Part shown: in pieces, positions 1 through 21,598 of the stretch
Position numbering within the stretch: the first letter of the stretch is position 1
Layout: every line of letters begins with the position of its first letter
From: a virus
Lineage: Duplodnaviria > Heunggongvirae > Uroviricota > Caudoviricetes
Direction: 5' to 3' (one strand)
DNA length: 24,951 nucleotides
Virus record (IMG/VR): IMGVR_UViG_2897333091_000001
Made by a program: the position numbers and the translations under genes
The notes under the pieces: generated by a model
The model's database searches: none
Told to the model about the DNA's origin: nothing
The model's input: the letters and a program-made list of their open reading frames with translations, nothing else

Positions 1-1254
1 ATGCTGGAACAAATGGGCATTGCCGCGAAGCAAGCCTCGTATAAATTAGCGCAACTCTCCAGCCGCGAAAAAAATCGCGTGCTGGAAAAAATCGCCGATG
101 AACTGGAAGCACAAAGCGAAATCATCCTCAACGCTAACGCCCAGGATGTTGCTGACGCGCGTGCCAATGGCCTTGGCGAAGCGATGCTTGACCGTCTGGC
201 ACTGACGCCCGCACGGCTGAAAGGCATTGCCGATGATGTGCGCCAGGTGTGTAACCTCGCCGATCCGGTGGGGCAGGTAATCGATGGCAGCGTACTGGAC
301 AGCGGCCTGCGTCTTGAGCGTCGTCGCGTACCGCTGGGGGTTATTGGCGTGATTTATGAAGCGCGCCCGAACGTGACGGTTGATGTCGCTTCGCTGTGCC
401 TGAAAACCGGTAATGCGGTGATCCTGCGCGGTGGCAAAGAAACGTGTCGCACTAACGCTGCAACGGTGGCGGTGATTCAGGACGCCCTGAAATCCTGCGG
501 CTTACCGGCGGGTGCCGTGCAGGCGATTGATAATCCTGACCGTGCGCTGGTCAGTGAAATGCTGCGTATGGATAAATACATCGACATGCTGATCCCGCGT
601 GGTGGCGCTGGTTTGCATAAACTGTGCCGTGAACAGTCGACAATCCCGGTGATCACAGGTGGTATAGGCGTATGCCATATTTACGTTGATGAAAGTGTAG
701 AGATCGCTGAAGCATTAAAAGTGATCGTCAACGCGAAAACTCAGCGTCCGAGCACATGTAATACGGTTGAAACGTTGCTGGTGAATAAAAACATCGCCGA
801 TAGCTTCCTGCCCGCATTAAGCAAACAAATGGCGGAAAGCGGCGTGACATTACACGCAGATGCAGCTGCACTGGCGCAGTTGCAGGCAGGCCCTGCGAAG
901 GTGGTTGCTGTTAAAGCCGAAGAGTATGACGATGAGTTTCTGTCATTAGATTTGAACGTCAAAATCGTCAGCGATCTTGACGATGCCATCGCCCATATTC
1001 GTGAACACGGCACACAACACTCCGATGCGATCCTGACCCGCGATATGCGCAACGCCCAGCGTTTTGTTAACGAAGTGGATTCGTCCGCTGTTTACGTTAA
1101 CGCCTCTACGCGTTTTACCGACGGCGGCCAGTTTGGTCTGGGTGCGGAAGTGGCGGTAAGCACACAAAAACTCCACGCGCGTGGCCCAATGGGGCTGGAA
1201 GCACTGACCACTTACAAGTGGATCGGCATTGGTGATTACACCATTCGTGCGTAA
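1..1254 (+). CDS. proA: gamma-glutamyl phosphate reductase (glutamate-5-semialdehyde dehydrogenase)
   Basis: 417-aa ORF filling 1..1254, recognised by eye as enterobacterial ProA (aldehyde-dehydrogenase family); GC-balanced chromosomal composition; lies immediately upstream of thrW as in E. coli. Confidence 0.95.
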
Positions 1255-1368
1255 ATAAAACCGGGTGATGCAAAAGTAGCCATTTGATTCACAAGGCCAT
1301 TGACGCATCGCCCGGTTAGTTTTAATCTTGTCCACCGTGATTCACGTTCGTGAACATGTCCTTTCAGG

Positions 1369-1444
1369 GCCGATATAGCTCAGTTGGTAGAGCAGCGCAT
1401 TCGTAATGCGAAGGTCGTAGGTTCGACTCCTATTATCGGCACCA
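1369..1444 (+). tRNA. thrW: tRNA-Thr, anticodon CGU
   Basis: 76-nt sequence GCCGATATAGCTCAGTTGGTAGAGCAGCGCATTCGTAATGCGAAGGTCGTAGGTTCGACTCCTATTATCGGCACCA with acceptor/D/anticodon/T arms, anticodon loop ..TTCGTAA.., encoded CCA end; matches recalled thrW. Confidence 0.92.
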
Positions 1445-1458
1445 TTTAAATCAATAAG

Positions 1459-2622
1459 TTACACATCATTAGTACCTTCCTTATTTCTTGACTGGGACAA
1501 ATTTGGGACCGATGGGTTCAGAATCGAGTCTATTTGCCGTGCGTGTTCGGTAAGGTGATTAGGTGCGAGGTGAGCATATCGACGAACCATTTCGATAGAC
1601 TCCCAGCCTCCCATTTCCTGTAACACTGATAACGGGACTCCGGCTTGAACCAGCCAACTTGCCCAGGTGTGTCTCAAGTCGTGAAATCTGAAATCATCAA
1701 TACCTGCTCGTCTCAGCGCCGCTTTCCAGGCTGTGTTTGCGTCATACCGCATCTTCCTGACTGTTGGCGCTTTCGTTCCGTCTGGTTTGGTACAGCTTTC
1801 CTTATACACAAATACCCAACGGTGATGATTCCCGATTTGTTTTTTCAATACGCGACATGCAGTATCATTCAGCGCAACGCCAATTGCGCGGTTTGATTTA
1901 CTCTCTTCCGGGTTTATCCATGCCACCCGGCGCTGCATGTCTATTTGTTGCCATTCAAGGTTGATGATGTTCGAGCGTCTTAAGCCTGTTGCAAGTGCAA
2001 ATTCAACAACAGACTTTAATGGCTCCGGACATTCATCAATCAGCCTTTGTGCTTCATGAGGCTCCAGCCAGCGGATCCGTTTATTCTTTGGTTGAGGCAC
2101 TTTAATAATTGGTGCCTTATCCAGCATTTTCCATTCACGCTCTGCGGCTCTTAGCAGGGCCTTTATAAATGAAAGATGCGTAGCCTTCGTTGCAACGGAC
2201 GCTGGTTTTGGCGTGTATTCTGGAACAGGTTTCCCTTTTTTTCTGCATGCTTCTGCCCTGAGTTTCCAGTTTTCCTCATGACGCCGGTTCGTCATTTTCT
2301 GCATTGCTGAATAAATTTTTGATTCAGTAATGTCTCTTAGTTGCATTCCTGCGAAATGTTGAAGCCAGAATCCGATCCGGCTTTTGTCATCGTCCAGTGA
2401 TTTTTTATGTGCTTTCTCTTCAAGCCACCTGACACACGCTTCCTCGAACGTTATATCAGGAATTTCACCAAGTTTGCTGACCCGCCATGCTTCAGCCTTT
2501 AGCTTGTCATGGAGTTCTGTCGCCTGCCTTTTGTCCTTTGTTCCAAGAGACTGTTTAAATCTTTTACCGTTCGGCAATGTGAAACTGGCGTACCATATTT
2601 CACCTCTGCGGAAGAGTGACAT
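1459..2622 (-). CDS. int: Tyrosine recombinase, phage P22-type integrase
   Basis: 387-aa ORF starting [21 protein letters not shown].. with C-terminal catalytic region ..[40 protein letters not shown] (R..H..R..Y); near-identical to recalled P22 Int; stop lies 14 bp from the tRNA 3' end. Confidence 0.92.
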
Positions 2623-2849
2623 TTTCTTTCCTCTGTTATGCCATCACCCGCGCTCACCTGGACAGTATGCAGCGGAGACTGAAGCGCCGCAATGCAGGCT
2701 TGTCGTGTTGTGAGGTAAGGAGATTTATTCTTAGTGGGATCTTTGCGTGTTGCCTGCAGACGCCCTGTGCGTATCCAGTTAATGGCAGTCGGTCTGGATA
2801 TCTTGAGAAAATGACAGGCCTCATCTAGCGTGAGGCTGTATGGCTCCAT
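2499..2849 (-). CDS. xis: Excisionase (P22 Xis-like)
   Basis: 116 aa from the internal ATG at 2849 ([37 protein letters not shown]..), preceded by GAGGTGA SD; start overlaps the stop of the upstream ORF (TAATG); 3' end overlaps int by 124 nt. The longer 144-aa reading from 2933 was rejected. Confidence 0.75.
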
Positions 2850-3154
2850 TATTTCACCTCTTGTTGTGACATTGTTGAAAAATGGATACCTGCTCGTTGC
2901 TGCCAGACGATCCAACCGAGAGTCATATCCCATGCCATGTATTCGTTATCGCCGTTTTTTGCTCTCCGACGATCTACTAAGTCACCGAAACGCTTTTCCA
3001 TGAATAATTCATAAGCTTCGCGTTCATCTGGTTCTACTTCCAGAGATAGGAGTGCGATTTCATAAGCACGGCGCTCAATATCGTCTCGCACGTCAAGGCT
3101 GCTGATACGCTCTTTAATTTCTTTAATCAGTTCTTTGTCGGTAAAAGTGGTCAT
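2849..3154 (-). CDS. Hypothetical phage protein (101 aa), translationally coupled upstream of xis
   Basis: ORF MTTFTDKELIKEIKERISSLDVRDD.. with GGAGG SD; TAATG stop/start overlaps at both ends (3154 and 2849); charged, helical-looking sequence; function not recognised. Confidence 0.5.
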   Translation of the reverse strand: MTTFTDKELIKEIKERISSLDVRDDIERRAYEIALLSLEVEPDEREAYELFMEKRFGDLVDRRRAKNGDNEYMAWDMTLGWIVWQQRAGIHFSTMSQQEVK

Positions 3155-3273
3155 TATGCTCCAGCCTCCGGTGCTTTTGGCATTACTGCCCAGTGAGTGA
3201 TATTGACGTTTTCAAGGTCCCCGACCTGAAATGTCCACTGCCATTCTCCGGTTTCTTTTTGTCCCCAGGTGTA
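3154..3273 (-). CDS. C-terminal fragment of a phage ORF whose 5' part is lost in the scaffold gap
   Basis: Open frame ..YTWGQKETGEWQWTFQVGDLENVNITHWAVMPKAPEAGA* running out of the N-run and ending with a stop that overlaps the start of the 101-aa ORF (TAATG). Confidence 0.3.
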   Translation of the reverse strand, partial: YTWGQKETGEWQWTFQVGDLENVNITHWAVMPKAPEAGA

Positions 3274-3373
3274 NNNNNNNNNNNNNNNNNNNNNNNNNNN
3301 NNNNNNNNNNNNNNNNNNNNNNNNNNNNNNNNNNNNNNNNNNNNNNNNNNNNNNNNNNNNNNNNNNNNNNNNN
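3274..3373. other. Scaffold gap (100 N), unknown true length
   Basis: Run of exactly 100 N; flanking sequences do not overlap; coding frames on both strands run into it. Confidence 0.95.
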
Positions 3374-3374
3374 C

Positions 3375-3548
3375 GAATACATAAACAGTAAGCAATGGCC
3401 TGGTAAAGCGGCGATTGGTCGCCTGAAAGGTGAGGAACTGGCGCAATATAATTTGTGGCTGGATTATCTGGACGCACTGGAACTGGTCGATACTTCCGGT
3501 ACGCCAGATATTGAATGGCCTACGCCTCCGGCAGTTCAGGCCAGATGA
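3375..3548 (+). CDS. tfa: Tail fibre assembly protein, C-terminal fragment (N-terminus in gap)
   Basis: ..NLWLDYLDALELVDTSGTPDIEWPTPPAVQAR* parallels the C-terminus of the minus-strand Tfa (..LDYIDAVTATDTSTAPDVIWPELPEA*); the two genes converge and overlap at 3520..3548, as in Pin/Gin invertible segments. Confidence 0.6.
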   Translation, partial: EYINSKQWPGKAAIGRLKGEELAQYNLWLDYLDALELVDTSGTPDIEWPTPPAVQAR

Positions 3549-4113
3549 CGTCCGGCGCTGTGCTGGTATCTGTTGCCGTCACCGCGTCAATATAATCCAG
3601 CACAGCGTTAAGTCGGGTGTTTTCTGGCTGCGTCAGCTTCCGCCCGGCCTGTAATTTCAGTTGAATCAGACTGATGGAAGCCATTGCAGCATCAATCAGC
3701 GACTGGCGCTGTGCTTCTGCAGCTTCTACTGCGACGCTATGCTGTGCCTCGGTATCCGTCACCCATTTCTCACCATCCCATTTATCGTATGGCGTTAACG
3801 GTGAAAGCGTGACATAACCGTCTTTGATGGCACCGATATAATCCACTGTAACAGCTGCGCCATTTTCAGTTGAGTAAACGGTCTCATTGCGATGGTCTTC
3901 TTCATGGCTCCATCCCTTACCCGTAAATACTGCCACTTTTCCCGGAATGTTTTCGCCCGGGTCAATACCAGTGGAACAGGCGGGCATACTTACGCCAGTA
4001 TTAATATATTCATCAGACCAGCCGGTATATTCATACGTTACTGCATTATAATAAAAACAACGCATATCGCCCGGCACTGTAGCCAGCCCATTTTCATCAA
4101 AAACAGGCTTCAT
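3520..4113 (-). CDS. tfa: Tail fibre assembly protein (TfaE-like)
   Basis: 197-aa ORF MKPVFDENGLATVPGDMRCFYYNAVTYEYTGWSDEYINTGVSMPACSTGIDPGE.., recognised as the e14/lambdoid Tfa family; start overlaps the stop of the upstream tail-fibre segment. Confidence 0.85.
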   Translation of the reverse strand: MKPVFDENGLATVPGDMRCFYYNAVTYEYTGWSDEYINTGVSMPACSTGIDPGENIPGKVAVFTGKGWSHEEDHRNETVYSTENGAAVTVDYIGAIKDGYVTLSPLTPYDKWDGEKWVTDTEAQHSVAVEAAEAQRQSLIDAAMASISLIQLKLQAGRKLTQPENTRLNAVLDYIDAVTATDTSTAPDVIWPELPEA

Positions 4114-4685
4114 TATTTAGCCCTCACCAGAAAGTTAAATGCAATATTTCGTGGACGGGTTTCTGTACCTACATTTCCACTAATTTCACCATAACGTTTA
4201 ACACTACGAGAGCTAAGAGCTCGTAGTGAGGAAGGCACCTTAAGACCGGGTTCGTCCGTTTTAACTATTCCCCCGTCACCATATGTAGCCAGTATTCCTG
4301 GGTTTACTCCTTCCCGTGCACTTCCTGCGGCAAGCCCGTCCCCCGTCCACAATTCCATATTGTGTGCATGATCCATAATTGTGTGTGATTGCCCTGAAAG
4401 TAGGGTACGTCCGACATCAATCCCGCGCCCATCATCCCAGATACGAATGAAATCACCGCGTGCGTCAGGTAATGCCAGCGCCGGAAACACTTTCGCCAGC
4501 ACAGGGTAATCAGTGGCAGAGAATTTCGCGCCGTTGAACTTCAAAAACACCATACCGGACCAGCTATCGATTACGGTATCTGGCATTGCAGCGGACGGCC
4601 AGAAGAACGGAACGCCAATAGCTGGAGCTCCTTCTCCCAAACCAACGTTTATGAAAATGCAGAAATAACGAGCAAATGGCATCAT
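4113..4685 (-). CDS. stf: Tail fibre C-terminal variable segment inside the invertible region; no independent N-terminus in this orientation
   Basis: 190-codon frame ending directly upstream of tfa; its 5' end runs through the putative crossover site, so it is probably expressed only when fused to a constant tail-fibre N-terminus after inversion; the annotated ATG at 4685 is probably not a real start. Confidence 0.65.
   Translation of the reverse strand: MMPFARYFCIFINVGLGEGAPAIGVPFFWPSAAMPDTVIDSWSGMVFLKFNGAKFSATDYPVLAKVFPALALPDARGDFIRIWDDGRGIDVGRTLLSGQSHTIMDHAHNMELWTGDGLAAGSAREGVNPGILATYGDGGIVKTDEPGLKVPSSLRALSSRSVKRYGEISGNVGTETRPRNIAFNFLVRAK
4632..4657. other. Candidate Pin/Gin-type crossover site (imperfect 26-bp dyad)
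   Basis: TTCTCCCAAACCAACGTTTATGAAAA resembles recalled gix/hix sites (TTCCTGTAAACCGAGGTTTTGGATAA / TTCTTGAAAACCAAGGTTTTTGATAA); 55 bp upstream of pin, at the 5' edge of the stf segment. Confidence 0.5.
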
Positions 4686-4711
4686 TCCTGCTTTTGTCAG
4701 GGGGATCTACC

Positions 4712-5266
4712 ATGCTTATTGGCTATGTACGCGTATCAACAAATGACCAGAACACAGATCTACAACGTAATGCGCTGAACTGTGCAGGATGCGAGCTGAT
4801 TTTTGAAGACAAGATAAGCGGTACAAAGTCCGAAAGGCCTGGACTGAAAAAACTGCTCAGGACATTATCGGCAGGTGATACGCTGGTGGTCTGGAAACTG
4901 GACCGACTGGGGCGCAGTATGCGGCATCTGGTCATTCTGGTTGAGGAGTTGCGCGAACGTGGCGTTAATTTTCGCAGCCTGACGGATGCTATTGATACCA
5001 GCACACCGATGGGGCGTTTTTTCTTTCATGTGATGGGTGCCCTGGCTGAAATGGAACGAGAACTGATTGTTGAACGAACAAAAGCTGGACTGGAAGCTGC
5101 TCGCGCACAGGGACGAATTGGTGGACGTCGTCCCAAACTTACACCAGAACAATGGGCGCAGGCCGGGCGATTAATTGCATCAGGCGTTCCTCGCCAGAAG
5201 GTGGCTATTATTTATGATGTTGGTGTGTCAACTTTGTATAAGAGGTTTCCAGCCAGGGTTATATAA
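4712..5266 (+). CDS. pin: Serine recombinase, DNA invertase Pin (Hin/Gin/Cin family)
   Basis: 184 aa from the ATG at 4712 (MLIGYVRVSTNDQNTDLQRNALN.. with catalytic Ser in YVRVS and C-terminal HTH ..GVSTLYKRFPA); AGGGGGA SD; near-identical to recalled e14 Pin. The upstream extension from 4676 was rejected. Confidence 0.93.
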   Translation: MLIGYVRVSTNDQNTDLQRNALNCAGCELIFEDKISGTKSERPGLKKLLRTLSAGDTLVVWKLDRLGRSMRHLVILVEELRERGVNFRSLTDAIDTSTPMGRFFFHVMGALAEMERELIVERTKAGLEAARAQGRIGGRRPKLTPEQWAQAGRLIASGVPRQKVAIIYDVGVSTLYKRFPARVI

Positions 5267-5390
5267 AACCGCAGACATGTCGTATGCAGGAGGTGTCGCG
5301 GTTGGCTGGTGAACTTTTGATAGTGCGAGTATTGAATGATTTCCAGCCGTTATCGATTTTACGTATTTTTTGCATGAGATGATTTGAACG
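5266..5390 (+). repeat. Direct repeat copy 1 (about 125 bp), begins at the pin stop codon
   Basis: About 90% identical to 8564..8690 by eye (AAACCGCAG..GTCGTATGCA..GGCTGGTGAACTT..GATAGTGCGAGTATTGAATGATTTCCAGCCGTTA.CGATTTTACGTATTTTTTG.ATGAGA). Confidence 0.75.
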
Positions 5391-5622
5391 CCCTAGCACC
5401 AACCGTTCATGATTGCACGCCACTGTCTCTAGAACTGCTATGTGCATGAAGCCGCTGTTCAAACTAAGAATTTATATGGCACTAACAGAAAAATGTTACA
5501 TATATGTTGAGCTTTAACGCAACATAGACATGTTCTATAGTTTGTGTCTCACCACCAGTTGAAAAAAAACGAAAATAGATTAACAATGTTCAGAAGAAAC
5601 CTTCATAATAGAAGAGGTATAA

Positions 5623-5877
5623 ATGGGTAAGATTATTCGGTGGATGCTTTTTTTTGTCGGATTATTTTCCGTTGCATATTCAATATATAAATATCAACAA
5701 TCTCCGCAGAGTTTATTTTACATAATCGGTGCTATAGGAACACTTTTATCTGCTACATGTGGTTTACTTGAGATAAAAAGCAAGAAATCGAATGGCAGTA
5801 TAACTGCTGGTGACAACTCAAATATCGTTGTCATTAATGGTTCAGAAAACACATCAAAAATAAAAAATAGAGGGTGA
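5623..5877 (+). CDS. Small membrane protein (84 aa, two predicted TM helices), function unknown
   Basis: ATG with AGAGG SD 5 nt upstream; hydrophobic stretches WMLFFVGLFSVAYSIY and LFYIIGAIGTLLSATCGLL followed by a polar Ser/Asn-rich tail; very AT-rich; stop sits 2 nt before the next gene's start. Confidence 0.55.
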   Translation: MGKIIRWMLFFVGLFSVAYSIYKYQQSPQSLFYIIGAIGTLLSATCGLLEIKSKKSNGSITAGDNSNIVVINGSENTSKIKNRG

Positions 5878-5879
5878 TT

Positions 5880-6815
5880 ATGTTTGATAAAGAGGTTAAC
5901 TTAGGAGACAACTCAAACGTAGTAAAAACAGAAGGGAATAACAACACAACAATAATAAATAATTTTGATGAGAAGTTTATAGGTCACGTTGTAAGATCCA
6001 TGCTTTATGAAAGTATGCCTTCCTTTCAAGAAGAAGCTAGAAAAAAGATAATTGCGTCAACTGATGAGTACGTTAGAGAGCTAATATCTGAGTTAGTAAT
6101 TCAAAAAACAGATGCAGATACATTAAACCAAAAACTATCAACGCCTGACGTTCAATACTCTCTTTTTGAATCAGCTAAATGTTTTGCAAAGAATCCAGAA
6201 AGAACAGAAAAATCAACTCTGTTAAATTTAGTTGTAAAAAAAATAAATGAATTGGATGGAGATCATGAAGAGCTTTCCTCTATCGATCTGGCAATAAACG
6301 TCGCTACAAAACTTAGCGTAAAGCAAATAAGGTATATAGCTTTAATACACTATATTAAAGATATTGTAAAAATATCACAAGATAGTGCCGGCGCTTATTG
6401 CATAATAGATCCTTCAAAAGATACAACAGAAGAAGTTGACGATTTCTTTTTATTCCCAAATGATATAAAAAGGAACAAACAGGATGTTTATGACCTTTAT
6501 ATCGATCTATATAACAATCAAATGGATGTTGTATTTAAAGATGAAGAGATTGGCCCAATTGATTATAGTATGCTTATAGCGTTGGGTTGTATCATTCAAC
6601 CTGCATTCCCTCAGCCAACATTTGTACAAAATGTAAAGAAAAGAACAGGATTAGATTTAAACGACAGCGAACAAAAATTAAAGCTATCGACATTCATTGA
6701 GAAAATAGAAAAAGCTATAGAGATAGATTCTGTCGATTATATAGTATTAACTACGGTTGGTAGACAAATAGCTAACGCCTATATATCAACAAGAATGAGA
6801 TTAGTTAACTTATAA
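5880..6815 (+). CDS. Hypothetical protein (311 aa from the ATG at 5880), no recognisable family
   Basis: Long ORF in strongly AT-rich DNA; AGAGGG SD 6 nt before the ATG at 5880 (the ORF track starts at GTG 5874); followed by a terminator hairpin; N-terminus shares a GDNSN(I/V)V motif with the tail of the upstream peptide. Confidence 0.65.
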   Translation: MFDKEVNLGDNSNVVKTEGNNNTTIINNFDEKFIGHVVRSMLYESMPSFQEEARKKIIASTDEYVRELISELVIQKTDADTLNQKLSTPDVQYSLFESAKCFAKNPERTEKSTLLNLVVKKINELDGDHEELSSIDLAINVATKLSVKQIRYIALIHYIKDIVKISQDSAGAYCIIDPSKDTTEEVDDFFLFPNDIKRNKQDVYDLYIDLYNNQMDVVFKDEEIGPIDYSMLIALGCIIQPAFPQPTFVQNVKKRTGLDLNDSEQKLKLSTFIEKIEKAIEIDSVDYIVLTTVGRQIANAYISTRMRLVNL

Positions 6816-6836
6816 ATATCTCATATTTCTTCATCC

Positions 6837-6871
6837 AAGGTGGTGGCTTCATCATCCACCGCCTTCTTTTC
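6837..6871 (+). terminator. Rho-independent terminator candidate after the two-gene module
   Basis: AAGGTGGTGG-cttcatcat-CCACCGCCTT stem-loop followed by a T-rich run (CTTTTCT). Confidence 0.5.
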
Positions 6872-7190
6872 TGCTCTTAAGATTAGTGAACAAACCACTC
6901 GTCAGCAAACTCCCAAGTATCTTTCAGAGTCTCCTGAACAAAAGCCTTAGCAGAATCCTTATCTGCGGTGTACGTAACAGTGATGTACGTAACAGGAAAA
7001 TCATCGCTATGGTAGCTTTGACGTTCATCCCCATACCATAAAATATCAAGAGATTACGACTCATTTCCCCATGGCTCTTCACCAACCAACAGTTCTATCA
7101 ACATAAGATGTAAACTCATAAACTAAACAAGATAAAAAAATTAACAGAATTTTGTTGATTTCATGTCTGTGGAGTGTTAACTTAAAATGA

Positions 7191-7210
7191 GACCTGAAGT
7201 ACTGAAGGTC
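7191..7210. promoter_or_regulatory. Imperfect 20-bp palindrome upstream of the XRE gene (candidate operator)
   Basis: GACCTGAAGTACTGAAGGTC (16/20 self-complementary) located 24 bp upstream of the XRE start codon. Confidence 0.4.
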
Positions 7211-7233
7211 TTTGACACACTGGAGAAGCAACT

Positions 7234-7593
7234 ATGTTAACGCCGTTTGGTAAGACAGTAAGAAAAATGCGCATAGACTTAGGGCTTACGCTTAAAAGCA
7301 TGGCTGAGGCTATGGGCATGACCTCGTCTTATCTTTCAGCGATCGAAACTGGTAAAAGGGCAGTCACTAAGCCCGTGCTTGATAGCATCATTAGCTATTT
7401 TAATGCGGATGAAAAACAAAAAGAAAAGCTTATCAGTGCAGCTCGTGACTCTCAGCAGTCAGTAGAGATCAGCTTGTCAGGTAAGAATGGCCACGCTCGT
7501 GAAGTCGCAATTGCGTTCGCTCGTAGTTTTGATGAATTAAATGAAGAAGACTTCCGTAATTTACGACAGATTTTGAATCGAAAACAGCAGTAG
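7234..7593 (+). CDS. XRE-family helix-turn-helix transcriptional regulator
   Basis: 119 aa; N-terminal HTH signature ..LGLTLKSMAEAMGMTSSYLSAIETGKRAVTKPVLDSI..; GGAGA SD; immediately followed by the metallopeptidase gene. Confidence 0.8.
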   Translation: MLTPFGKTVRKMRIDLGLTLKSMAEAMGMTSSYLSAIETGKRAVTKPVLDSIISYFNADEKQKEKLISAARDSQQSVEISLSGKNGHAREVAIAFARSFDELNEEDFRNLRQILNRKQQ

Positions 7594-7601
7594 GAGGCGG
7601 C

Positions 7602-8123
7602 TTGAGCGGACAAGATTATCGTGTACCTCCGCAGAATCGTGAATCAATACGTTCGATCGTCACATCTCTGCGGAGCGCATTTGGTATTACTGGGCTTAAA
7701 TTCCCTGTAATGGAGGTAATTGAGTTCGCATTGCCTCAGTTGATCCCGGATTTTGAGTTCCACATTGGTGGTATGAAAGAAATGGGAGAAACGCATGGTC
7801 TTACGTACCCACAGGAACATTTATTGATTCTGCGCGAAGACATTTACGAAGGCGCTTTGAATGGGGTAGGGCGAGATAGGATGACTGCCGCACATGAATT
7901 GGGTCATCTTCTTATGCACAGGAACATCGCATTTGCTCGTTCTGCCCCAGGGGTAAAAATCCGCCCTTTTGAGAGTAGTGAATGGCAAGCTAAATGTTTT
8001 AGTGGTGAGTTATTAGTGCCAGCTATGCATGCCAGTGTTTTAAAAGGTATGACGGCTGAGGATGTTGCTAAGGCATGCGGAGTTTCATTAGTGGCAGCGC
8101 GTTATCAGCTAGACAGAATGTAA
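7602..8123 (+). CDS. ImmA/IrrE-family (DUF955-like) zinc metallopeptidase domain protein
   Basis: 173 aa with HExxH motif (AAHELGHLLMH); TTG start 4 nt after an AGGAGG that overlaps the XRE stop, so the exact start is uncertain; gene pairing is typical of ImmR/ImmA or CapH/CapP regulator pairs. Confidence 0.78.
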   Translation: MSGQDYRVPPQNRESIRSIVTSLRSAFGITGLKFPVMEVIEFALPQLIPDFEFHIGGMKEMGETHGLTYPQEHLLILREDIYEGALNGVGRDRMTAAHELGHLLMHRNIAFARSAPGVKIRPFESSEWQAKCFSGELLVPAMHASVLKGMTAEDVAKACGVSLVAARYQLDRM

Positions 8124-8126
8124 AAA

Positions 8127-8162
8127 CCCCTTGCTTGGCGCCAACCAGTGCAAGGGGCTTTA
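8127..8162 (+). terminator. Hairpin terminator candidate (weak U tract)
   Basis: CCCCTTGC-15 nt-GCAAGGGG stem directly after the peptidase stop, followed by CTTTA. Confidence 0.4.
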
Positions 8163-8280
8163 GGTGATGAATCCAAGAGGCATCACCACCGTGAACAGCT
8201 TCGATAGACAGCCTGAAATTAACACCTTCAGGGAAGATGTTCAAGGGAAAAATCTCTCTTGGTAAGGAGGTGTTTTATGA

Positions 8281-8430
8281 ATGGGTTTGAAATCAATTGC
8301 TTCAAAAGCGGCGCCCAAAGGGTTCCGTTGGGTTTTCTGCCGTTACCGCAAGGTGCGTGGGAAATCAAAAAAAGTCCTTGATGCTCATGATTACGGGTAC
8401 GAGGCGTGGGCATTTTTAGTGCGCTGCTAA
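8281..8430 (+). CDS. Small basic ORF (49 aa), hypothetical
   Basis: Strong AAGGAGG SD (8264..8270); ATG at 8281 (alternative ATG at 8277 gives a 34-aa product in another frame); MGLKSIASKAAPKGFRWVFCRYRKVRGKSKK..; ends 15 bp before a strong terminator. Confidence 0.35.
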   Translation: MGLKSIASKAAPKGFRWVFCRYRKVRGKSKKVLDAHDYGYEAWAFLVRC

Positions 8431-8444
8431 GGGTTAGTATTTAA

Positions 8445-8466
8445 GGCACCTGCGGGTGCCTTTTTT
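8445..8466 (+). terminator. Rho-independent terminator
   Basis: GGCACC-tgcg-GGTGCC stem-loop followed by TTTTTT. Confidence 0.65.
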
Positions 8467-8563
8467 GTATCCTCTGACCCGATTGGTGTCTTGCTGAGCC
8501 TGATAACTACCAATTTTTGTTATTACTATTCTACTATCGCTCAATCATGATTGGCGGGAGTTG

Positions 8564-8690
8564 AAACCGCAGGCTCGTCGTATGCAAGAACGTGCTGCGG
8601 CTGGCTGGTGAACTTCCGATAGTGCGAGTATTGAATGATTTCCAGCCGTTACCGATTTTACGTATTTTTTGTATGAGAGGATTTACACCT
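8564..8690 (+). repeat. Direct repeat copy 2 (about 125 bp)
   Basis: Aligns along its length with 5266..5390, differing by scattered substitutions. Confidence 0.75.
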
Positions 8691-8930
8691 CCTCCCACCG
8701 ATCCTCCATGACTTTACGTCACTAAATTTTAACAGAGCCGGGAGCACTGCCGGAGCCTGCCTAATCATAATTCGCCCCCAAACTGGACGTACAGCGCTTT
8801 GTGTCCAGGTAGTGGGAAAATGAAGAAAGGACTGTCTGCCAGCAGTTCTGCGACCGCACCGGGCGCAGAGTATGCCAGCAGATTTCCGACTGGCCGCGCA
8901 GCTGCGATGGCACATCTGTCAGCAGGACGA

Positions 8931-9009
8931 AAAGTACTGAATGGTAGCGGCCAAACGGTGGTTTGAAAATGACCGGGCGACACGGTATTACGGGACTTTT
9001 ACAGTACTG
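8931..9009. repeat. 79-bp repeat unit A with AGTACTG terminal inverted repeats
   Basis: AAAGTACTGAATGGTAGCGGCCAAACGGT...GGCGACACGGTATTACGGGACTTTTACAGTACTG; near-identical copy at 9321..9397. Confidence 0.7.
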
Positions 9010-9320
9010 ATAATGAGGAAATGTATATGTATCAGCTTATAAAACTATATGGCGGGCAGATGGCCCCAAATCCATCCGAATACCGAATTTTGTTTCAGGG
9101 CAATTATCTCGCCGCTATATGGATTTATGCTTAGAGTAACAACCATGTAAATAATTGATAATTATAGATTGTTTAGCATGGTTCGCACTCTGAAATGCCG
9201 GGTGCGAGGTTTGGCGAAGATGGCCGATATTCGAGTGTTTTGCTCTTATATCGACGAAATAAGACAGGCGTGGCGGGATTTTTTCTGCGATTCCTGGGAA
9301 AAAAATGAATAAAAACAGTG

Positions 9321-9397
9321 AAAGTACTGAATGGTAGCGGCCAAACGGTACATAAAATGTCCGGGCGACACGGTATTACGGGACTTTTACAGTACTG
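9321..9397. repeat. 77-bp repeat unit B (copy of unit A)
   Basis: Same ends and core as 8931..9009, with a short divergent middle (GGTTTGAAAATGA vs ACATAAAATGT). Confidence 0.7.
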
Positions 9398-9733
9398 GTT
9401 ATGTGTAAAGATGCCAGCTGCGGGCCGTGTTCACCGGCGCACCGAGCGTAAAGTATGCCAGCAGATTTCAGGCTTGCCGCGCAGCTGCAGCATGCGGAAT
9501 GCCAGCACTGGACAGAATCACTGCACCGTCTATGAACTGGCGCCCCTTCATGCCCTGACCGGAGAGGCTTGGATGTACTCATGGAAGACAAAATGCCTAT
9601 TAATGAGGTAAGTATGCAAATTGAGTTAGGGCGAATGAGTGGGAAATAAAAATTACATATGTAGTGATTGCAAACCTGCTACATGAAGGTAACTGCAAAA
9701 AGCATATTACCTTCCTTGTAGCTATAGATAAGG

Positions 9734-11104
9734 TTATTTCTCTTTCTCAGGCAAAACGCGGTCTATAATTTCTTTATTAATTTTAGATGTCGTATTAATC
9801 AATTCGTTTATTTTATCAATTTCCATTTGATGTGACTTCTTGTCTATGGAGCTAAGCGGTGATCTTAATACTGATTTAAGAATGTTATCCATGAATAATG
9901 ATGATTTATCGGTATCGTTCTTATTGATTTCCTGCTTGAAAGATACAAGAGTTTCAGATAGCAATTTTTTATGTGCATAATCTTCACTGATGTTGTTTTG
10001 TTTAACATATTGTATGGCGCTAAATACAAAGAAGCCTATTAATACTGGAATCATTGAGAATCGAGCAAAGAATAATAATAATAAGTTGGGCTCTTGGCCT
10101 GTAGGAGGATAAGAACTAACTTCATTCATCTTGACAAGCATATAAACCACGAATGCTATACATACGATTGCAGCTCCTATTGATACAAAGGCCCAAAACC
10201 TTTTGTTTTTATTTGCGGTTTTGTATGCATCTCTAAAATGTCTTGATAGCCTATATGTTCCAGATAAATTCAATGCGGAATTAGCTTTAGAGTTCAATTC
10301 TTTCGCATTATTTATTTCACCAGATATAATGGTTTTTAATTCTTTAATTTCAGTTTTTTTATCAAGGAGATTTTTAATCTCACTGGCAGACTCAGCAGAT
10401 TTTTTAATGATTTCGTCTTGCATTGATTTGTTTGTATTAACGATATTGTTTAATGTTTCTTCAACAGTTCTTAGCTTTTCACTAGATGATTCTATACCAA
10501 TAAGTGCATCTCTGCTCTTTTTTAGTATGAATTCTATTTCAGAACCGGCGCTTTCAAATTTTTTCGTCTCGGCGTTCAAGTCCGTAACAAGTTTAATGAT
10601 TTTATCATGAGAGTTTGCATTTCTTACTGCTAACTCTCTGATTTGAGTTGCACTTATTTCAATTTCATTTTTCAGTTCTACCACTTTGGCTATTTCATTA
10701 GATGCTTGATTTTTGAACATAGCTAAGGTGTTAGGTTGATTATGCGTGCCTTGGATAAACTTAGATATTCTTGAATACCTAATTAAATCATCATTGATAG
10801 TGATAATGTTCCGATAAATATCATCTGAAAAAATATCAGAAATCATAGATGATATGTAGTTGTCCGTAAGTTTTAGTAGTGAAAAGATATTTTCTTTTTC
10901 TTCTTTTGTAAAGAATTCAGCATGTGCGAAAGGATGGAATTTATTGATTATGGAAATATGTTCGGACATATTTCCCAAAAGTTTGCTTCTTCTGTTGGCA
11001 ACGGTTATGTATTTAGGGTCACTTATGCTTTTTAGCATTCTTATGATTTTTTCAAAATTACCAAAAATAGATGCTGTGGTTGATGAAAATTCATTCAGAG
11101 TCAT
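9734..11104 (-). CDS. Orphan 456-aa protein: long helical/coiled-coil-like N-terminal region, two predicted TM helices, about 90-aa C-terminal tail; function unknown
   Basis: Uninterrupted ORF in very AT-rich DNA; K/E/I/N-rich N-terminal 290 aa; hydrophobic segments FWAFVSIGAAIVCIAFVVYMLV and LLLLFFARFSMIPVLIGFFVFSAIQYV; no neighbouring partner gene on the same strand. Confidence 0.7.
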   Translation of the reverse strand: MTLNEFSSTTASIFGNFEKIIRMLKSISDPKYITVANRRSKLLGNMSEHISIINKFHPFAHAEFFTKEEKENIFSLLKLTDNYISSMISDIFSDDIYRNIITINDDLIRYSRISKFIQGTHNQPNTLAMFKNQASNEIAKVVELKNEIEISATQIRELAVRNANSHDKIIKLVTDLNAETKKFESAGSEIEFILKKSRDALIGIESSSEKLRTVEETLNNIVNTNKSMQDEIIKKSAESASEIKNLLDKKTEIKELKTIISGEINNAKELNSKANSALNLSGTYRLSRHFRDAYKTANKNKRFWAFVSIGAAIVCIAFVVYMLVKMNEVSSYPPTGQEPNLLLLFFARFSMIPVLIGFFVFSAIQYVKQNNISEDYAHKKLLSETLVSFKQEINKNDTDKSSLFMDNILKSVLRSPLSSIDKKSHQMEIDKINELINTTSKINKEIIDRVLPEKEK

Positions 11105-12087
11105 ACTTTATCCATTTAGAAGTTGTGTATTGCAGTGTGTATTACAAAATGTTTGAAAGAAAAACATTTTGAGGAAAAACACTCTGATAATCAAGGAAGT
11201 ATTTTCAAGAGGTTGCATGGTGATCCATTATCCTTCTTCGCCAGCGGGGGATTAACCCCAGTCATGGCTTTCCGGTTAACCGGATATCATTGGGTTCAAT
11301 GCAGTACAAAAAATTGCCCGAAGCAACACTGAAATACCCTGTCACTCACCACACGTACCGCAGGCGACCCTGCCGGTGAGCCATTCTGATTGCGCAGTCT
11401 GTCCGGCGAGCCACTAACTCACTGGAAGAGAAAACAACATATGGCCGCGCAGCGGCGCGGGGATGCCCCTCGCAGGAAAAGTGAGTGACTACCCCGTCGA
11501 CGGCATTCAGCGCCTCACACAGCTGAAAACGGGACCGGTATACGGGCTGGCTAAAACAGGTCTGTTCATACCACGCTCCCCCCTGCCGAACGGGAACGCA
11601 CACTGTTCAACATCGCCCGTATCGATGTCATGTGTTCCGTCACGCATTCTGCCGATGCCAGCGCTGAGACTCGTCTTTCAGGAGGGGCCGCTGCAGGCCG
11701 AGATATGCGGTTGCCCGTCCCTTGCCCTTTTCAGCATTGACAACATCCAGCCTGTCGGGAGCTGCCGCATTGGGTTAGACCTGTGTAAGTCGATGCTAAC
11801 GTCTAACCATTTAACTTCCGCTTGTTGCTCATAACAGGCATTCACTTCAGTTACGGCAGAAAGGTATGCATGCTGGGTGGGGAAAGTGTGAAGGAAAAGA
11901 AGACTGCTGCGCCGTTTGTCGTCACGTTTATCTTCATTGGCTATGCAAGTCGTAATACAAGGTGGGACAAAACTGAGACACATAAGGCCTCGCAATGGCT
12001 TGCAAGGCTTTACATGTTTTGATGTGGTGGGACGTGTGAGCGCAGTGTTGATGGGGTAATGCTTTGAATTAGAAGCGGATTCTTATA

Positions 12088-12133
12088 ATTCGTAATGCGA
12101 AGGTCGTAGGTTCGACTCCTATTATCGGCACCA
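12088..12133 (+). repeat. Perfect 46-bp direct copy of the thrW 3' end (att core; right junction of element 1, left junction of element 2)
   Basis: ATTCGTAATGCGAAGGTCGTAGGTTCGACTCCTATTATCGGCACCA is identical to 1399..1444; flanks diverge immediately after one additional T. Confidence 0.9.
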
Positions 12134-12295
12134 TCTCAACTTCCCCAAACGTCCGTATTCATCCATAAGCACCCTGATTTATAACGATTTTACCGCTTTT
12201 TAGTCCGTCGTTGTCCGTGACCATCCAGTAGAATCCGATACAGAATGTGTATAGGATTGTGTATATGTTCCTGTTCGGTCTTGGAGCCTATACAC

Positions 12296-13471
12296 ATGCC
12301 TTTAAACGATATGCAGATTCGCCGCGCTAAGCCTGAAGATAAACCCTATACGCTTGGGGATGGGCAAGGCTTGTCATTGCTTATAGAACCTAATGGAAGC
12401 AAGAGCTGGCGGTTCCGCTATCGCTACGCCGGTAAACCCAAGATGATCTCGCTTGGCGTTTACCCAACGATCACCCTTGCCGATGCTCGTTCCCGTCGTG
12501 ATGAAGCTCGAAAACTTGTGGCAGAAGGAAAGAACCCTAGTGAGGTTCGAAAAGAGCAAAAGCTGGCTCTGCAAACAGAGTCAGAGAACGCCTTCGAAAA
12601 GATCGCCAGAGAGTGGCATCAACTTAAATCTGCTAAATGGTCAGCTGGATACGCATCAGACATCATGGAAGCGTTTAAGAACGACATTTTTCCTTATGTT
12701 GGAACAAGGCCTGTGGGAGAGATTAAACCGCTAGAGCTGCTGAACGTACTGCGTAAAATTGAGAAACGTGGTGCGTTGGAGAAAATGCGTAAAGTGCGGC
12801 AGCGTTGCTCCGAGGTGTTTCGCTACGCAATTGCAACAGGTAGGGCGGAGTACAATCCTGCTGCGGATCTCTCCAGCGCTCTCGAAGTGCATCAATCCAA
12901 TCATTTCCCGTTCTTAAAAGCTGATGAGATACCCGAATTTCTGCGTGCCTTAGAGAGTTACACCGGGAGTAAAATTGTCCAGATAGCAACGAAATTACTG
13001 ATGATTACGGGCGTGAGAACCATCGAATTACGCGCGGCATTATGGCAAGAATTTGATCTGGATAACGCTATTTGGGAAATTCCTGCTGAAAGGATGAAAA
13101 TGCGCAGGCCGCATCTTGTGCCATTGTCTACTCAGGCGTTAGATTTACTCAATGAACTCAAGACAATGACAGGCAACTATCGTTATGTTTTTCCTGGGCG
13201 AAATGATCCGAGTAAGCCAATGAGTGAGGCCGCTATCAATCAGCTTATAAAGCGACTTGGATACGGTGGCAGGCTTACAGGTCATGGATTTAGGCATATG
13301 ATGTCAACTATTTTACATGATGCTGGCTTTAATTCTCAATATATTGAATTACAGCTCGCTCACGTTGATAGTAATAGAATTCGCGGTACATATAATCATG
13401 CAACATTCATTGAAGAAAGAAGGAAAATGTTGAACTTTTTCTCTTCAACGTTATTTTTAAGGAAAATGTAA
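12296..13471 (+). CDS. int: Tyrosine recombinase, P4-type integrase
   Basis: 391 aa from the ATG at 12296 (MPLNDMQIRRAKPEDKPYTLGDGQGLSLLIEPNGSKSWRFRYRYAGK.. arm-binding N-terminus; C-terminal ..HGFRHMMSTILHDAGF..LAHVDSNRIRGTYNHA); sits next to the tRNA-derived att copy. Confidence 0.88.
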   Translation: MPLNDMQIRRAKPEDKPYTLGDGQGLSLLIEPNGSKSWRFRYRYAGKPKMISLGVYPTITLADARSRRDEARKLVAEGKNPSEVRKEQKLALQTESENAFEKIAREWHQLKSAKWSAGYASDIMEAFKNDIFPYVGTRPVGEIKPLELLNVLRKIEKRGALEKMRKVRQRCSEVFRYAIATGRAEYNPAADLSSALEVHQSNHFPFLKADEIPEFLRALESYTGSKIVQIATKLLMITGVRTIELRAALWQEFDLDNAIWEIPAERMKMRRPHLVPLSTQALDLLNELKTMTGNYRYVFPGRNDPSKPMSEAAINQLIKRLGYGGRLTGHGFRHMMSTILHDAGFNSQYIELQLAHVDSNRIRGTYNHATFIEERRKMLNFFSSTLFLRKM

Positions 13472-15288
13472 ATGAGAATTGAAACTGTTTATATTAAAGG
13501 ATTCAGGAATTACTGTGATGCTGTTATTAATTTTAATGAAACTAATTTGATTATAGGTGCAAATGATGTTGGAAAGACCAACCTATTATATGCCATTCGA
13601 TTATTACTTGATAAAAGTTTATCTGAATTAGATCTAGAACNNNNNNNNNNNNNNNNNNNNNNNNNNNNNNNNNNNNNNNNNNNNNNNNNNNNNNNNNNNN
13701 NNNNNNNNNNNNNNNNNNNNNNNNNNNNNNNNNNNNNNNNGAATTAGATCTAGAACCAAAAAGCAATGACTTTCATGTAAATTCGACAGGTGAACAGGTT
13801 GAAAATATAGAAATCACTATCAAGTTTACAGATGTTAGTGAAGATGCTGTAATATCTAAATTAGGAGGGTATGTTAGCGATGAAGGGGAAACATACATTA
13901 AGTATCTTGCTTCATCATTAACTATGGATTACAAGATATTACTTAGTCATGAACATAACAATTTTGATGAGGTTCCTAATAGATTTTACTTAAAGTGTTT
14001 AAGTCTAAGGTATATAAATTCGCAAAGAGATCTTGAAAAATACATTAAAATTGAAAAGAAGCATCTTTTAAGATTGGCGCAAGAAGTTCGTAGTGAAAAG
14101 GATACTGAAAATGATGGGGCGGTTTTTACTGAATTAAATAAGCTACTTACTGAAGTAAATGAAAAAGTTAAAGGAATAAGTTATGTTGCATCAGCAACAG
14201 AAGAGCTTAACGAGGAACTTAGAAAGTTATCCTATACTCATGATAGATTAACTGTTCAACTTGATACTGGTGCAATAGGGATTGACCAGTTTATAGAGAA
14301 ATTAGAATTAAGTGCGAATACAAATGGGAAGAAACTAATGCTTGGTGGCGATGGGTTTAATAACCAAATCCTTCTTGCGTTATGGAAAGCAAAAAGTGTT
14401 CGCGAGCATGATGTTGAAAGTGAAGTAGTGATCTATTGTATAGAGGAACCGGAAGCACATCTATTTCCTCACCAGCAAAGAAAATTGGCGGCCTATTTAA
14501 TCGATAAACTTCCAGGCCAAGCAATCGTTACAAGCCACTCACCCCAAATTGCAGTGAATTTTAAACCTGATTCAATCATAAAACTATACTATGATGATGG
14601 AGAGACTCTAGCCGCAAGTAATGGATGTTCTGATTGTATTAGCTCTGCATGGGATGGAATGGGCTACCGGATGAGTATTATTCCTGCTGAGGCATTTTTT
14701 GCTAACGTGGTTTTTTTGGTCGAGGGACCATCTGAGGTGATTTTTTACACTGAATTAGCAAAAGCATTAAGTATTGATCTTGATTATTATAACATCAGCA
14801 TTCTTTCTGTTGATGGTATCCAATTTGAAGTTTATAGAAAAATATTAACAGCTCTAAATATTAATTGGATCGTAAGAACAGACAATGATGCTTCAAAAGT
14901 ACCTCATAAGAATGAATGGCAATATGCTGGTGTAAATAGGGCGTTAGCACTGTGTGGAGAGAATAAAGAACCAAACTCAAGTATTCCTATAGATAGTAAA
15001 GCTTTGCATACTAAGTGGGGAACCATTTCACCAATAATAAATCCTAACGGCGTTTATATATCTTTTTTTGATCTTGAAGGAGATCTTGCTAATGACTTTT
15101 CGAAGCATGTTCTTGATTATGCAAGTAAGGATAATCTAGATGATGCCGCTGATTATTTGAGAGGAAAAAAAGCTATACGTATGCGTGAGTTAATTAAAGA
15201 GAAAAAAGCTTTTTTAACTGAACTGAAGAGCAAAGATATAGCCAGACCTCTAATACATGCACTGAAAATTGCTAGAGGTGAATTATGA
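13472..15288 (+). CDS. gajA: Gabija GajA-like OLD-family ATPase/Toprim endonuclease (interrupted by scaffold gap 13641..13740)
   Basis: N-terminus ..IKGFRNY..NLIIGANDVGKTNLLYAIRLLLDK (P-loop), later VIYCIEEPEAHLFPHQQRKL (Walker-B-like) and VVFLVEGPSEVIFY..IVRTDNDASK (Toprim), matching recalled GajA blocks; frame stays open from 13741 to 15288; starts directly after the int stop. Confidence 0.85.
13641..13740. other. Scaffold gap (100 N); flanks share a 16-bp overlap
   Basis: GAATTAGATCTAGAAC occurs at 13625..13640 and again at 13741..13756, in the gajA reading frame (ELDLE) on both sides. Confidence 0.9.
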
Positions 15289-16907: not shown

Positions 16908-16924
16908 AAATTACTTGGCGCGCA

Positions 16925-16943
16925 ATGCTCTCCCCGCCACGCC
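16925..16943 (-). other. cos-like site resembling P2/186-family 19-nt cohesive-end sequence
   Basis: Reverse complement GGCGTGGCGGGGAGAGCAT is one mismatch from the 186-type and three from the P2/P4-type cohesive end as I recall them; lies between the cargo and psu, where P4 carries cos. Confidence 0.5.
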
Positions 16944-17044
16944 CGCCCGCTTTGTGGGGCGGTTTTAATGCAGTTGTACTGTCACGCTCAGGCTGCGCCG
17001 GGAATGGCGCGGTCTGCAGAAAATGAGGCAGGGAAACGCATGCA

Positions 17045-17077
17045 AAGCCATGCACCTTATCGATGCATGGCTTTTTT
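17045..17077 (+). terminator. Rho-independent terminator between gajB and psu
   Basis: AAGCCATGCA-ccttatcga-TGCATGGCTT stem-loop followed by TTTTTT; an A-run on the other side allows bidirectional function. Confidence 0.6.
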
Positions 17078-17107
17078 CAGTAAAAACAGGCGGATTTTCG
17101 GGGAATT

Positions 17108-21584: not shown

Positions 21585-21598
21585 AGGAGAACAACACC

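Follow-up and report, generated by a model that had tools for sequence, protein, structure and literature searches.

An e14-type invertible tail-fibre switch, probably cut by a scaffolding placeholder, in an SfV-like prophage at thrW

In this work we have analysed a stretch of 24,951 nucleotides from record CP028307.1 (the window, meaning this whole stretch), the tail-fibre region of which was described in an initial annotation as half of a Pin-type invertible segment. It is very probable that an invertible tail-fibre switch of e14 type (a 'P segment'), carried by an SfV/e14-like thrW prophage, is represented here by its pin-proximal two-thirds, and that it was cut by a placeholder in the scaffold and not by biology. 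Gene content, the crossover site, an intact Pin, an in-frame fusion on in-silico inversion and the agreement of relatives all support the e14/Mu G-segment layout proposed in the initial annotation. The switch itself is already known: as a well-known Pin/e14-type switch cut only by a draft-scaffold placeholder, it is ordinary and not new, and matches to the region are present in 4,676 of 5,426 complete E. coli genomes.

Components of the switch in the window

The visible part of the switch and its borders comprise the following features.

3274-3373: scaffolding placeholder of exactly 100 N, size undefined
3375-3548, plus strand: C-terminal 57 codons of the tail-fibre assembly gene (tfa) of the predicted expressed orientation (Caudo_TAP, E 1e-12)
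3520-4113, minus strand: complete tfa of the predicted silent orientation, 197 aa (Caudo_TAP, E 7e-27)
4113-4685, minus strand: alternative tail-fibre tip (Sv', stfE-like), 43% identical to K-12 StfE, with a weak Collar match
4632-4657, plus strand: pin-proximal 26-bp crossover site, TTCTCCCAAACCAACGTTTATGAAAA, present once in the window
4712-5266, plus strand: pin, serine DNA invertase of 184 aa, ORF intact (Resolvase and HTH_7)
4734-4796: candidate Fis-bound recombinational enhancer within the 5' part of pin

In the crossover site, TTCTCCCAAACC-AA-CGTTTATGAAAA, the central dinucleotide AA occupies positions 4644-4645. The site is unique in the window when up to three mismatches are allowed and was matched in none of 100 shuffles. 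Over the 19-21 bases compared, which take in its inner half and core, it is identical to the pin-proximal site of K-12 e14, in agreement with the earlier description of a hix/gix-like 26-bp site next to pin, and homology with relatives breaks at 4630, 4631 or 4647, that is, at the site itself. No second crossover site (scan with up to three mismatches) and no constant fibre region were found in the 24,951 nucleotides, as had been noted before. As both lie outside the window, the switch is not demonstrably complete for the studied strain.

Pin is a typical member of the Din family in its size and domains, with 184 aa, a resolvase domain (PF00239, E 8.5e-52) and a C-terminal HTH (PF02796, E 1.5e-13). 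It is identical to K-12 PinE at 175 of 184 residues (95%), fully so over residues 1-74, and matches the Mu Gin structure 3uj3 over its full length (E 6e-94). The catalytic serine of the Din family lies near residue 9-10 in a conserved Y-x-R-V-S-T motif, and the translated N-terminus of Pin, MLIGYVRVSTNDQ, places the predicted catalytic Ser10 within YVRVST. The best match for Pin in the phage database, ON470584.1, was rejected as a model, being a partial 'phage' record that includes the host genes icd, mnmA and hflD; no invertible segment is annotated in it from pin to the gene named 'side tail fiber'. From the Hin and Gin systems an enhancer is expected in the 5' part of the invertase gene, and two loose Fis-like 15-mers, 48 bp apart and about 97 bp from the crossover core, are found there, although the motif matches many positions and does not discriminate. 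By analogy with these systems we infer that the Pin switch depends on Fis and an enhancer. In the stretch that separates the crossover site from pin, a simple scan detected no sigma-70-like promoter.

The two tfa genes are convergent and overlapping, just as was reported initially; the overlap is 29 nt (3375-3548 on the plus strand, 3520-4113 on the minus strand), and both genes have Caudo_TAP matches. The plus-strand gene is indeed truncated by the N-run, on its 5' side: its last 57 aa remain, covering profile positions 84-130 of 131, and the full-length gene is present in the relatives L009 (146 aa) and L029. The 197-aa protein is, from its sequence, the predicted chaperone for the alternative fibre tip. 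The part of this tip within the switch extends from 4113 to about 4644, and the codons at 4645-4685 are outside it. The variable fibre segment had been called start-less; the segment is present, but it is not strictly without a start, since two potential in-frame ATG starts, at 4685 and 4682, lie outside the invertible DNA at 37-40 nt from the crossover core, an arrangement shared with the annotated stfE of K-12. The same module of tfa, tip and pin stands behind a different tail in strain O55:H7 DEC5B (L002), in which the repeat finder detected no partner crossover site.

The missing third in related genomes

The part of the switch that the window lacks could be recovered from relatives. The contig L009 is 99.96% identical to window positions 3374-13640 (10,267 nt). 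Upstream of these it continues through tfa and a gp53-like tip to the left crossover site and the constant fibre region, and further into a Mu-like baseplate. The partner site and the constant region, which had been supposed to lie in or beyond the N-run, are thus both found directly upstream in L009. The partner site, CTCGAAAACC-TT-GGTTTAGGAGAA, is the inverted-orientation counterpart of the pin-proximal site at a distance of 1,897 bp in L009, and a partner is found 1.8-1.9 kb off in K-12, L001, L003, L008 and L009. The sibling assembly CP028306.1 is 100% identical to the window across about 12.5 kb of shared sequence. It places the piece holding the missing part elsewhere, and the last 41 nt of this piece match window 3374-3414 exactly; the sibling contig L027, which overlaps the window over these positions, also carries the partner site. 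The second 26-bp site, which was still to be located, is therefore known from L009 and from L027 and is not in the window. With the core-to-core length taken from L009, 1,270 of 1,897 bp are visible, two-thirds of the segment and not only the pin-proximal half that had been claimed; the hidden invertible DNA would amount to about 627 bp and not to at least 1.5 kb, with a constant region of about 290 bp hidden in addition.

When the segment of L009 is inverted in silico, an in-frame fibre of 273 aa results, directly followed by the 197-aa tfa. The two states of L009 are thus fibres of 215 aa and 273 aa that have residues 1 to about 100 in common, each with its own tfa after it. The orientation captured in the window is predicted to express the gp53-like tip together with the 146-aa tfa and to leave silent the 197-aa tfa (3520-4113) and the tip of Collar type (4113-4644). 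Among the relatives encoding an identical Pin protein, to which the comparison of orientations was limited, L009 and L014 have the segment as in the window, and in L007, L008, L010 and L012 it is reversed relative to pin. We infer that switching actually takes place in the studied strain. According to the proposed mechanism, Pin would bind the two inverted 26-bp sites, one at 4632-4657 near pin and the other about 1.9 kb upstream within the tail-fibre gene, presumably assisted by host Fis bound to an enhancer early in the pin gene. It would then cut both sites at the central AA/TT dinucleotide, after which the half-sites would rotate by 180 degrees and be religated, as described for inversion in the Hin/Gin family (PMC3798978). 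The inversion would exchange the receptor-binding tip fused in frame to the constant fibre part of about 100 codons, and each tip would travel with its own downstream tfa chaperone.

The closest known system is e14 of K-12, in which the same gene order is found: the constant fibre part is followed by a tip with its tfa, then by the convergent tfa and the alternative tip, and finally by the crossover site and pin. The junction of the two tfa genes is 89% identical to the window, and the minus-strand ORF of the window shares with K-12 stfE its opening MPFA.YF.IFINVGLGE codons, which lie outside the switch. In K-12, too, pin is followed by a slot for variable cargo, which contains mcrA; the cargo in the window differs. 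The core-to-core length is 1,827 bp in K-12 e14 compared with 1,897 bp in L009, the fibre tips are other alleles than those of K-12 (the stfE-like tip at 43% identity, the gp53-like tip only weakly similar), and the left third of the switch, present in K-12, is outside the window. The Hin/Gin/Cin family likewise consists of small serine recombinases with a C-terminal HTH acting at 26-bp inverted sites with a 2-bp core. The Mu switch and the P1 switch, its C segment, exchange tail-fibre tips along with their chaperones, the G segment of Mu being about 3 kb long with different fibre genes, whereas the Hin switch (the H segment of Salmonella) flips a promoter and not fibre exons. The P segment of e14 is inverted by PinE, and both of its states occur in K-12 cultures (PMC4272514, PMC12529663).

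Could the host keep this switch for its own protection? In K-12 the inversion of the e14 P segment yields StfE2, which blocks the adsorption of T2 (PMC12529663), and the segment of the recombinase-activated PinQ/StfE2 phage inhibition system (Kirigo et al. 2025, PMC12529663) is of the same kind as the one studied here. By analogy, a domesticated anti-phage switch, retained by the host regardless of the state of the prophage, would give, in the inverted state, an StfE2-like adsorption blocker against other phages, predicted as a chimeric ORF of 132 aa made of 18 pin-proximal codons and the hidden gp53-like tip. The K-12 precedent is joined by the in-silico inverted L009, which gives a 132-aa ORF starting at the same MMPF... 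codons, by a 129-aa gene of this kind called in L008, where the segment is inverted, and by the variable cargo/defence slot that pin adjoins. However, the tip allele differs from that of the PinQ/StfE2 system, and in its variable part the 132-aa product resembles K-12 StfE2 only weakly. Moreover, L009 and L027 have an intact tail module, and ordinary host-range switching is therefore enough to explain the locus in full. We consider the anti-phage role unlikely; it is nevertheless compatible with a host-range switch as the main explanation.

The thrW prophage and the gap in CP028307.1

The surroundings of the host-range switch are those of a prophage integrated at thrW, with the following features.

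1369-1445, plus strand: tRNA-Thr gene thrW (ARAGORN), the 3' 47 nt of which (1399-1445) form the attL core
1459-2622, minus strand: prophage tyrosine integrase of SfV/SfII/SfIV type, 387 aa (ORF, Phage_integrase)
2499-2933, minus strand: excisionase-like HTH gene, ORF of 144 aa (HTH_17; xis annotated in SfV/SfII)
2849-3154, minus strand: YfdT-like early gene, 101 aa (yfdT annotated in relatives)
3154-3273, minus strand: YfdS-like phage gene, last 39 codons of 120 aa, cut by the gap at the left contig end
12088-12134, plus strand: attR, 47-nt copy of the thrW 3' end, an exact repeat of 1399-1445

The 47-nt repeats bracket both contigs, which makes both part of one thrW-integrated prophage. The left arm of the window is 98.5-98.9% identical to the int-xis-orf28-orf29 arm of SfV, SfII and SfIV (for the excisionase-like gene relatives annotate a 116-aa form), and these three phages integrate at thrW adjoining proA. 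K-12 e14, by contrast, is integrated at icd. The att repeats of the thrW 3' end and the SfV/SfII/SfIV-type integrase arm mark the element as an e14-like module on an SfV-like prophage and not as e14; judged from its sequence, it appears to be an SfV/e14-like prophage with a Mu-like tail at thrW, a tail module seen in relatives, as in SfV-type phages. No match to SfV, SfII or SfIV was seen for the region from tfa to pin. Between the tail fibre and attR these phages carry O-antigen gtr genes, in contrast to pin and the defence-like cargo of the window.

How much is hidden in the gap? The 100 N themselves, a placeholder, carry no size: the other 100-N run in the window separates contigs that overlap by 16 nt, and nothing is hidden there. 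The N-run at 3274-3373 would replace the hidden invertible DNA (about 627 bp), the left crossover site and the constant fibre region (about 290 bp), and it probably covers a prophage body of about 30 kb as well. That the whole body might lie in the gap was also suggested initially, and this is plausible. The equivalent of the gap is 30,946 bp in E. coli CX21, and in none of the 5,426 complete E. coli genomes are the gap edges separated by less than 700 bp. The left contig ends at the same base (3273) in the sibling assemblies CP028306.1 and CP028309.1, and a break shared by three assemblies resembles an assembly break and not a deletion junction. Mixed orientations of the segment were rejected as a cause of the break, which at 3374 falls inside the segment and not at the crossover site.

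The scaffold order across the submission series is unreliable. The left contig end has a Gabija/P4-like contig joined to it in CP028306.1; in CP028309.1 its neighbour is a contig that terminates in the start of a def-like gene. The tail contig of CP028306.1 adjoins umuDC at 1.23 Mb. As the siblings join this contig end to unrelated contigs, the gap itself supports no argument. Protein look-ups for P0001-P0003, the tail-fibre proteins from L009 and from the sibling, did not lead to CP028307.1, and the contig with the prophage body may have been dropped from its scaffold or may be truly absent.

The last possibility leads to a dead remnant, in which a deletion would have removed the prophage body together with the left site and the constant fibre region, and pin would be left with an orphan site and a frozen half-segment. 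Besides the tail-fibre proteins lacking from the record, L007 speaks for it: in this natural relative, which has an identical Pin and the same right-hand cargo, the prophage body is largely gone between the yfdS-like and the baseplate genes. On account of L007, an intact prophage in the studied strain is likely and not proven. Nevertheless, L007 itself retains both crossover sites and the constant fibre region. Together with the lack of any complete genome in which the gap edges are adjacent, the contig end common to three sibling assemblies and the sibling contig that spans the tail genes and the left site before ending within the window, this makes a remnant quite unlikely. It appears, rather, that the genome of the studied strain still holds the hidden part of the switch and the prophage body. 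The differing joins in the siblings and the position of the tail contig beside umuDC could also mean that the two contigs are not neighbours and that the one with tfa and pin comes from another prophage, for example at the e14/icd locus, but this is highly improbable given the thrW copy on each contig, the far end of the window, which matches the LysR-fragment/paoD flank following the thrW island in L001, L007 and L013, and the uninterrupted sequences of CX21 and L007, in which the order proA-thrW-int ... tail fibre-pin is as in the window.

Meaning of the locus

CP028307.1 probably lacks or misplaces about 31 kb of prophage that includes part of the switch, and prophage counts, tail-fibre typing and defence-island calls made from this record would consequently be wrong. 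The practical value of our analysis is thus a caution about the record. Its biological weight is small, since Pin/e14-type fibre switches are textbook knowledge and common to most E. coli genomes. If the anti-phage role were true, the Pin switch would be a phase-variable defence element beside a slot for defence genes and a Gabija-carrying P4-like satellite.

Elements of the switch visible in the window

Every element listed in the initial annotation (the pair of tail-fibre assembly genes, tfa, the fibre tip, the 26-bp site, the invertase gene pin and the N-run) was found in the window, and the 26-bp site occurs there only once even when three mismatches are allowed, with a match in 0 of 100 shuffles, so that the listed elements are all real.

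Features of the window (coordinates, strand where noted, description)
Window start: proA, neighbour of thrW
About 1369-1445: thrW
1459-2622, minus: integrase
Between the integrase and yfdT-like genes, minus: excisionase-like gene
Between the excisionase-like and yfdS-like genes, minus: yfdT-like gene
Broken off at base 3273, minus: last 39 codons of a yfdS-like gene
3274-3373: N-run 1, exactly 100 N
3375-3548, plus: last 57 codons of a tfa (Caudo_TAP profile positions 84-130 of 131)
3520-4113, minus: complete convergent tfa, 197 aa, overlapping the plus-strand tfa by 29 nt
4113-4685, minus: tail-fibre tip
4632-4657: 26-bp crossover site, TTCTCCCAAACCAACGTTTATGAAAA
4712-5266: pin
12245-13471: satellite integrase
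13472-16907: satellite Gabija genes GajA/GajB
13641-13740: N-run 2, 100 N
21599-23932: satellite alpha primase

The 184-aa Pin has Resolvase and HTH_7 domains, with Ser10 within YVRVST; it is identical to K-12 PinE at 175 of 184 residues and matches the Mu Gin structure 3uj3 over its full length (E 6e-94). The window site equals the pin-proximal repeat of the invertible e14 P segment of K-12 (CCTTCTCCCAAACCAACGTTT), whose partner repeat (AAACCTTGGTTTGGGAGAAGG) sits inside the fibre gene with 1,797 nt between the arms, in agreement with the published figure (PMC12529663). L001, L007, L008, the contig SHHC01000011.1 (L009) and E. coli CX21 (L003) all have this pair of sites, at a spacing of 1.85-1.9 kb. 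The window's fibre tip shows 43% identity to K-12 StfE; K-12 has different tip alleles, as is usual in such mosaics. The fibre segment had been described as start-less, but the open reading frame has two in-frame ATGs (4685 and 4682), both outside the invertible DNA, as are those of the annotated K-12 stfE. A Pin 98.9% identical to that of the window also begins ON470584.1 ('Escherichia phage vB_EcoM-689R6'). This record includes the host genes icd, mnmA and hflD, and tfa and alternative-tip genes are not annotated between its pin/mcrA and 'side tail fiber' gene; the record seems to be a prophage prediction with wrongly set boundaries.

The N-runs and the missing part of the switch

The window is part of CP028307.1 (GCA_003028755.1), a 4.71-Mb 'chromosome' with N-runs. 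SHHC01000011.1 aligns to window 3374-13640 with 4 mismatches over 10,267 nt (99.96%) and is 100% identical to 13741-15382. Because these two matches overlap by 16 nt in that contig, which reads straight through, and the 16-nt GAATTAGATCTAGAAC flanks N-run 2 on both sides, N-run 2 conceals no sequence; it artificially cuts the 566-aa GajA gene into 56-aa and 515-aa pieces. Two sibling assemblies, CP028306.1 and CP028309.1, agree with window 1-3273 at every position (100%). Both break at exactly the same base, where (at 9150-9350 of L019 and L018) they are joined across 100 N to unrelated contigs. One sibling joins the Gabija/P4-like contig which follows N-run 2 in the window, the other a contig ending in the start of a def-like gene. 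The join at 3273/3374 is therefore the scaffolder's decision and not a measurement, and the 100 N says nothing about the size of the gap. Scaffold order in this submission series should not be trusted.

The second crossover site and the constant fibre region had been expected in or beyond the N-run, and both were located in SHHC01000011.1 directly upstream of the equivalent of window 3374. This DNA holds codons 1-89 of the 146-aa tfa together with a gp53-like tip of the fibre; it also includes the left crossover site (CTCGAAAACC-TT-GGTTTAGGAGAA) and a constant region of ~100 codons inside a 215-aa fibre gene, with the Mu-like baseplate genes Gp48, Baseplate_J, GP46, Gp45 and GpP upstream. From core to core the invertible segment there measures 1,897 bp, so the window shows not half of it but 1,270 bp (67%), and what is hidden is 627 bp (33%), plus about 290 bp of constant region beyond, rather than at least about 1.5 kb of segment.

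A homologue search with this fibre protein led to P0002, which differs from it by one residue and has CP028306.1 as its only contig. Here the tail module, fibre gene and first 102 tfa codons lie at 1.22-1.23 Mb, adjoining umuDC and dsbB, which looks like a reference-guided placement at the K-12 e14 position. This tail contig is 99.989% identical to SHHC01000011.1, and its last 41 nt, which lie just ahead of a 100-N run, are the same as window 3374-3414; the missing third of the switch is therefore present in this lineage and adjoins the visible part. Look-ups of the tail-fibre proteins did not find the fibre gene on CP028307.1; its contig may have been dropped from that scaffold.

Inversion and the two orientations

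When SHHC01000011.1 was inverted in silico between the cores, the constant part joined in frame to the window's Collar-type tip, giving a 273-aa fibre which shares residues 1 to about 100 with the 215-aa fibre and whose stop overlaps the start of the 197-aa tfa. Both orientations exist among relatives with exactly the same Pin: one in L009, L014 and the window, the other in L007, L008, L010 and L012, where the homologous DNA is reversed relative to pin. Homology to relatives breaks at 4630/4631. The contig DADPHA010000023.1 (L013), from another strain with an identical Pin, ends (its position 1) at the equivalent of window 4647, 2 nt past the core, as would be expected of an assembler confused by reads of both orientations. 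In K-12 the P segment is inverted by PinE, and cultures are known to contain it in both states (PMC4272514, PMC12529663). The strand-exchange chemistry and the Fis-bound enhancer are known from the Hin/Gin literature (PMC3798978), and Pin would use both in the same way; a scan that was not discriminating gave two loosely Fis-like motifs at 4734-4796, spaced by 48 bp. It is possible, though unlikely, that the module also has a host-domesticated, StfE2-like anti-phage role, which would be compatible with a Pin switch: a 132-aa chimeric reading frame is predicted after inversion, and a 129-aa counterpart is called in L008.

The thrW prophage and its cargo

An exact second copy of the last 47 nt of thrW (1399-1445) lies at 12088-12134, so that attL and attR of a single element enclose both the integrase arm and the pin arm. 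Shigella phages SfIV, SfII and SfV share 98.5-98.9% identity with the left arm. E. coli CX21 carries the same prophage without interruption, from proA, thrW and int to fibre, tfa, tfa, tip and pin, and there 30,946 bp separate the equivalents of window 3273 and 3374; the intervening DNA comprises a lambdoid early region, an HK97-type head and a Mu-type tail.

Could the window instead be a dead remnant? In the relative L007 (JAINSR010000015.1), which shares the cargo and whose Pin is identical, most of the prophage body is gone on uninterrupted sequence: at 2860-4700, head and tail gene fragments and baseplate genes come within about 1.3 kb after a complete yfdS-like gene. L007 retains pin and both crossover sites and is a naturally deleted form of the same thrW prophage. 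For the window, however, a remnant is unlikely, given the sibling contig's overlap with 3374-3414, the recurrence of the assembly break at one base and the absence of such a junction from complete genomes (in 0 of 5,426 did the halves of a 400-nt query, built from the two gap edges, match within 700 bp of each other). The att repeats, and the gene order shared with CX21 and L007, likewise make a false adjacency of two contigs unlikely.

Just after pin, a 3.2-kb low-GC cassette is flanked by imperfect direct repeats of ~120-160 bp (5266-5385 and 8564-8684; 88% identical) and encodes an 84-aa membrane protein, a 313-aa Vpar_1526-family protein and a pair of CapH-like HTH and CapP/ImmA-like M78 peptidase proteins. 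Relatives carry in this slot Avs2 (L001), a GIY-YIG protein (CX21), McrA (K-12) or a 917-aa AAA_15 ATPase (L008, L010, L014 and L016), and this variety suggests that the pin-attR interval is a defence-gene hotspot. A 456-aa low-GC reading frame (9734-11104, minus) is coiled-coil-like towards its N terminus and has hydrophobic stretches towards its C terminus. No Pfam family is recorded for it, and its one match, to DruC, is weak (E 7e-5); it is kept beside the cassette in L007, L009, L013 and L015. A P4-like satellite (12135-24416), which also carries Psu, Ogr/Delta and a Sid-like gene, is integrated in tandem in the thrW copy that forms attR of the prophage; at about 24400-24416 a third, degenerate att sequence (cctattatcg-caccat) precedes a LysR fragment and the paoD flank.

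The initial interpretation is supported, with three corrections, which concern how much of the segment is visible, how large the hidden part is and what the N-run means. The window shows those features of the Din family that can be tested in it, and the second site is seen through near-identical relatives only. Since its integration site and integrase differ from those of e14, the element is not e14 itself; the region is a Pin switch module of the e14 type, carried by an SfV-like prophage at thrW, and the locus conforms throughout to a system that is already known.
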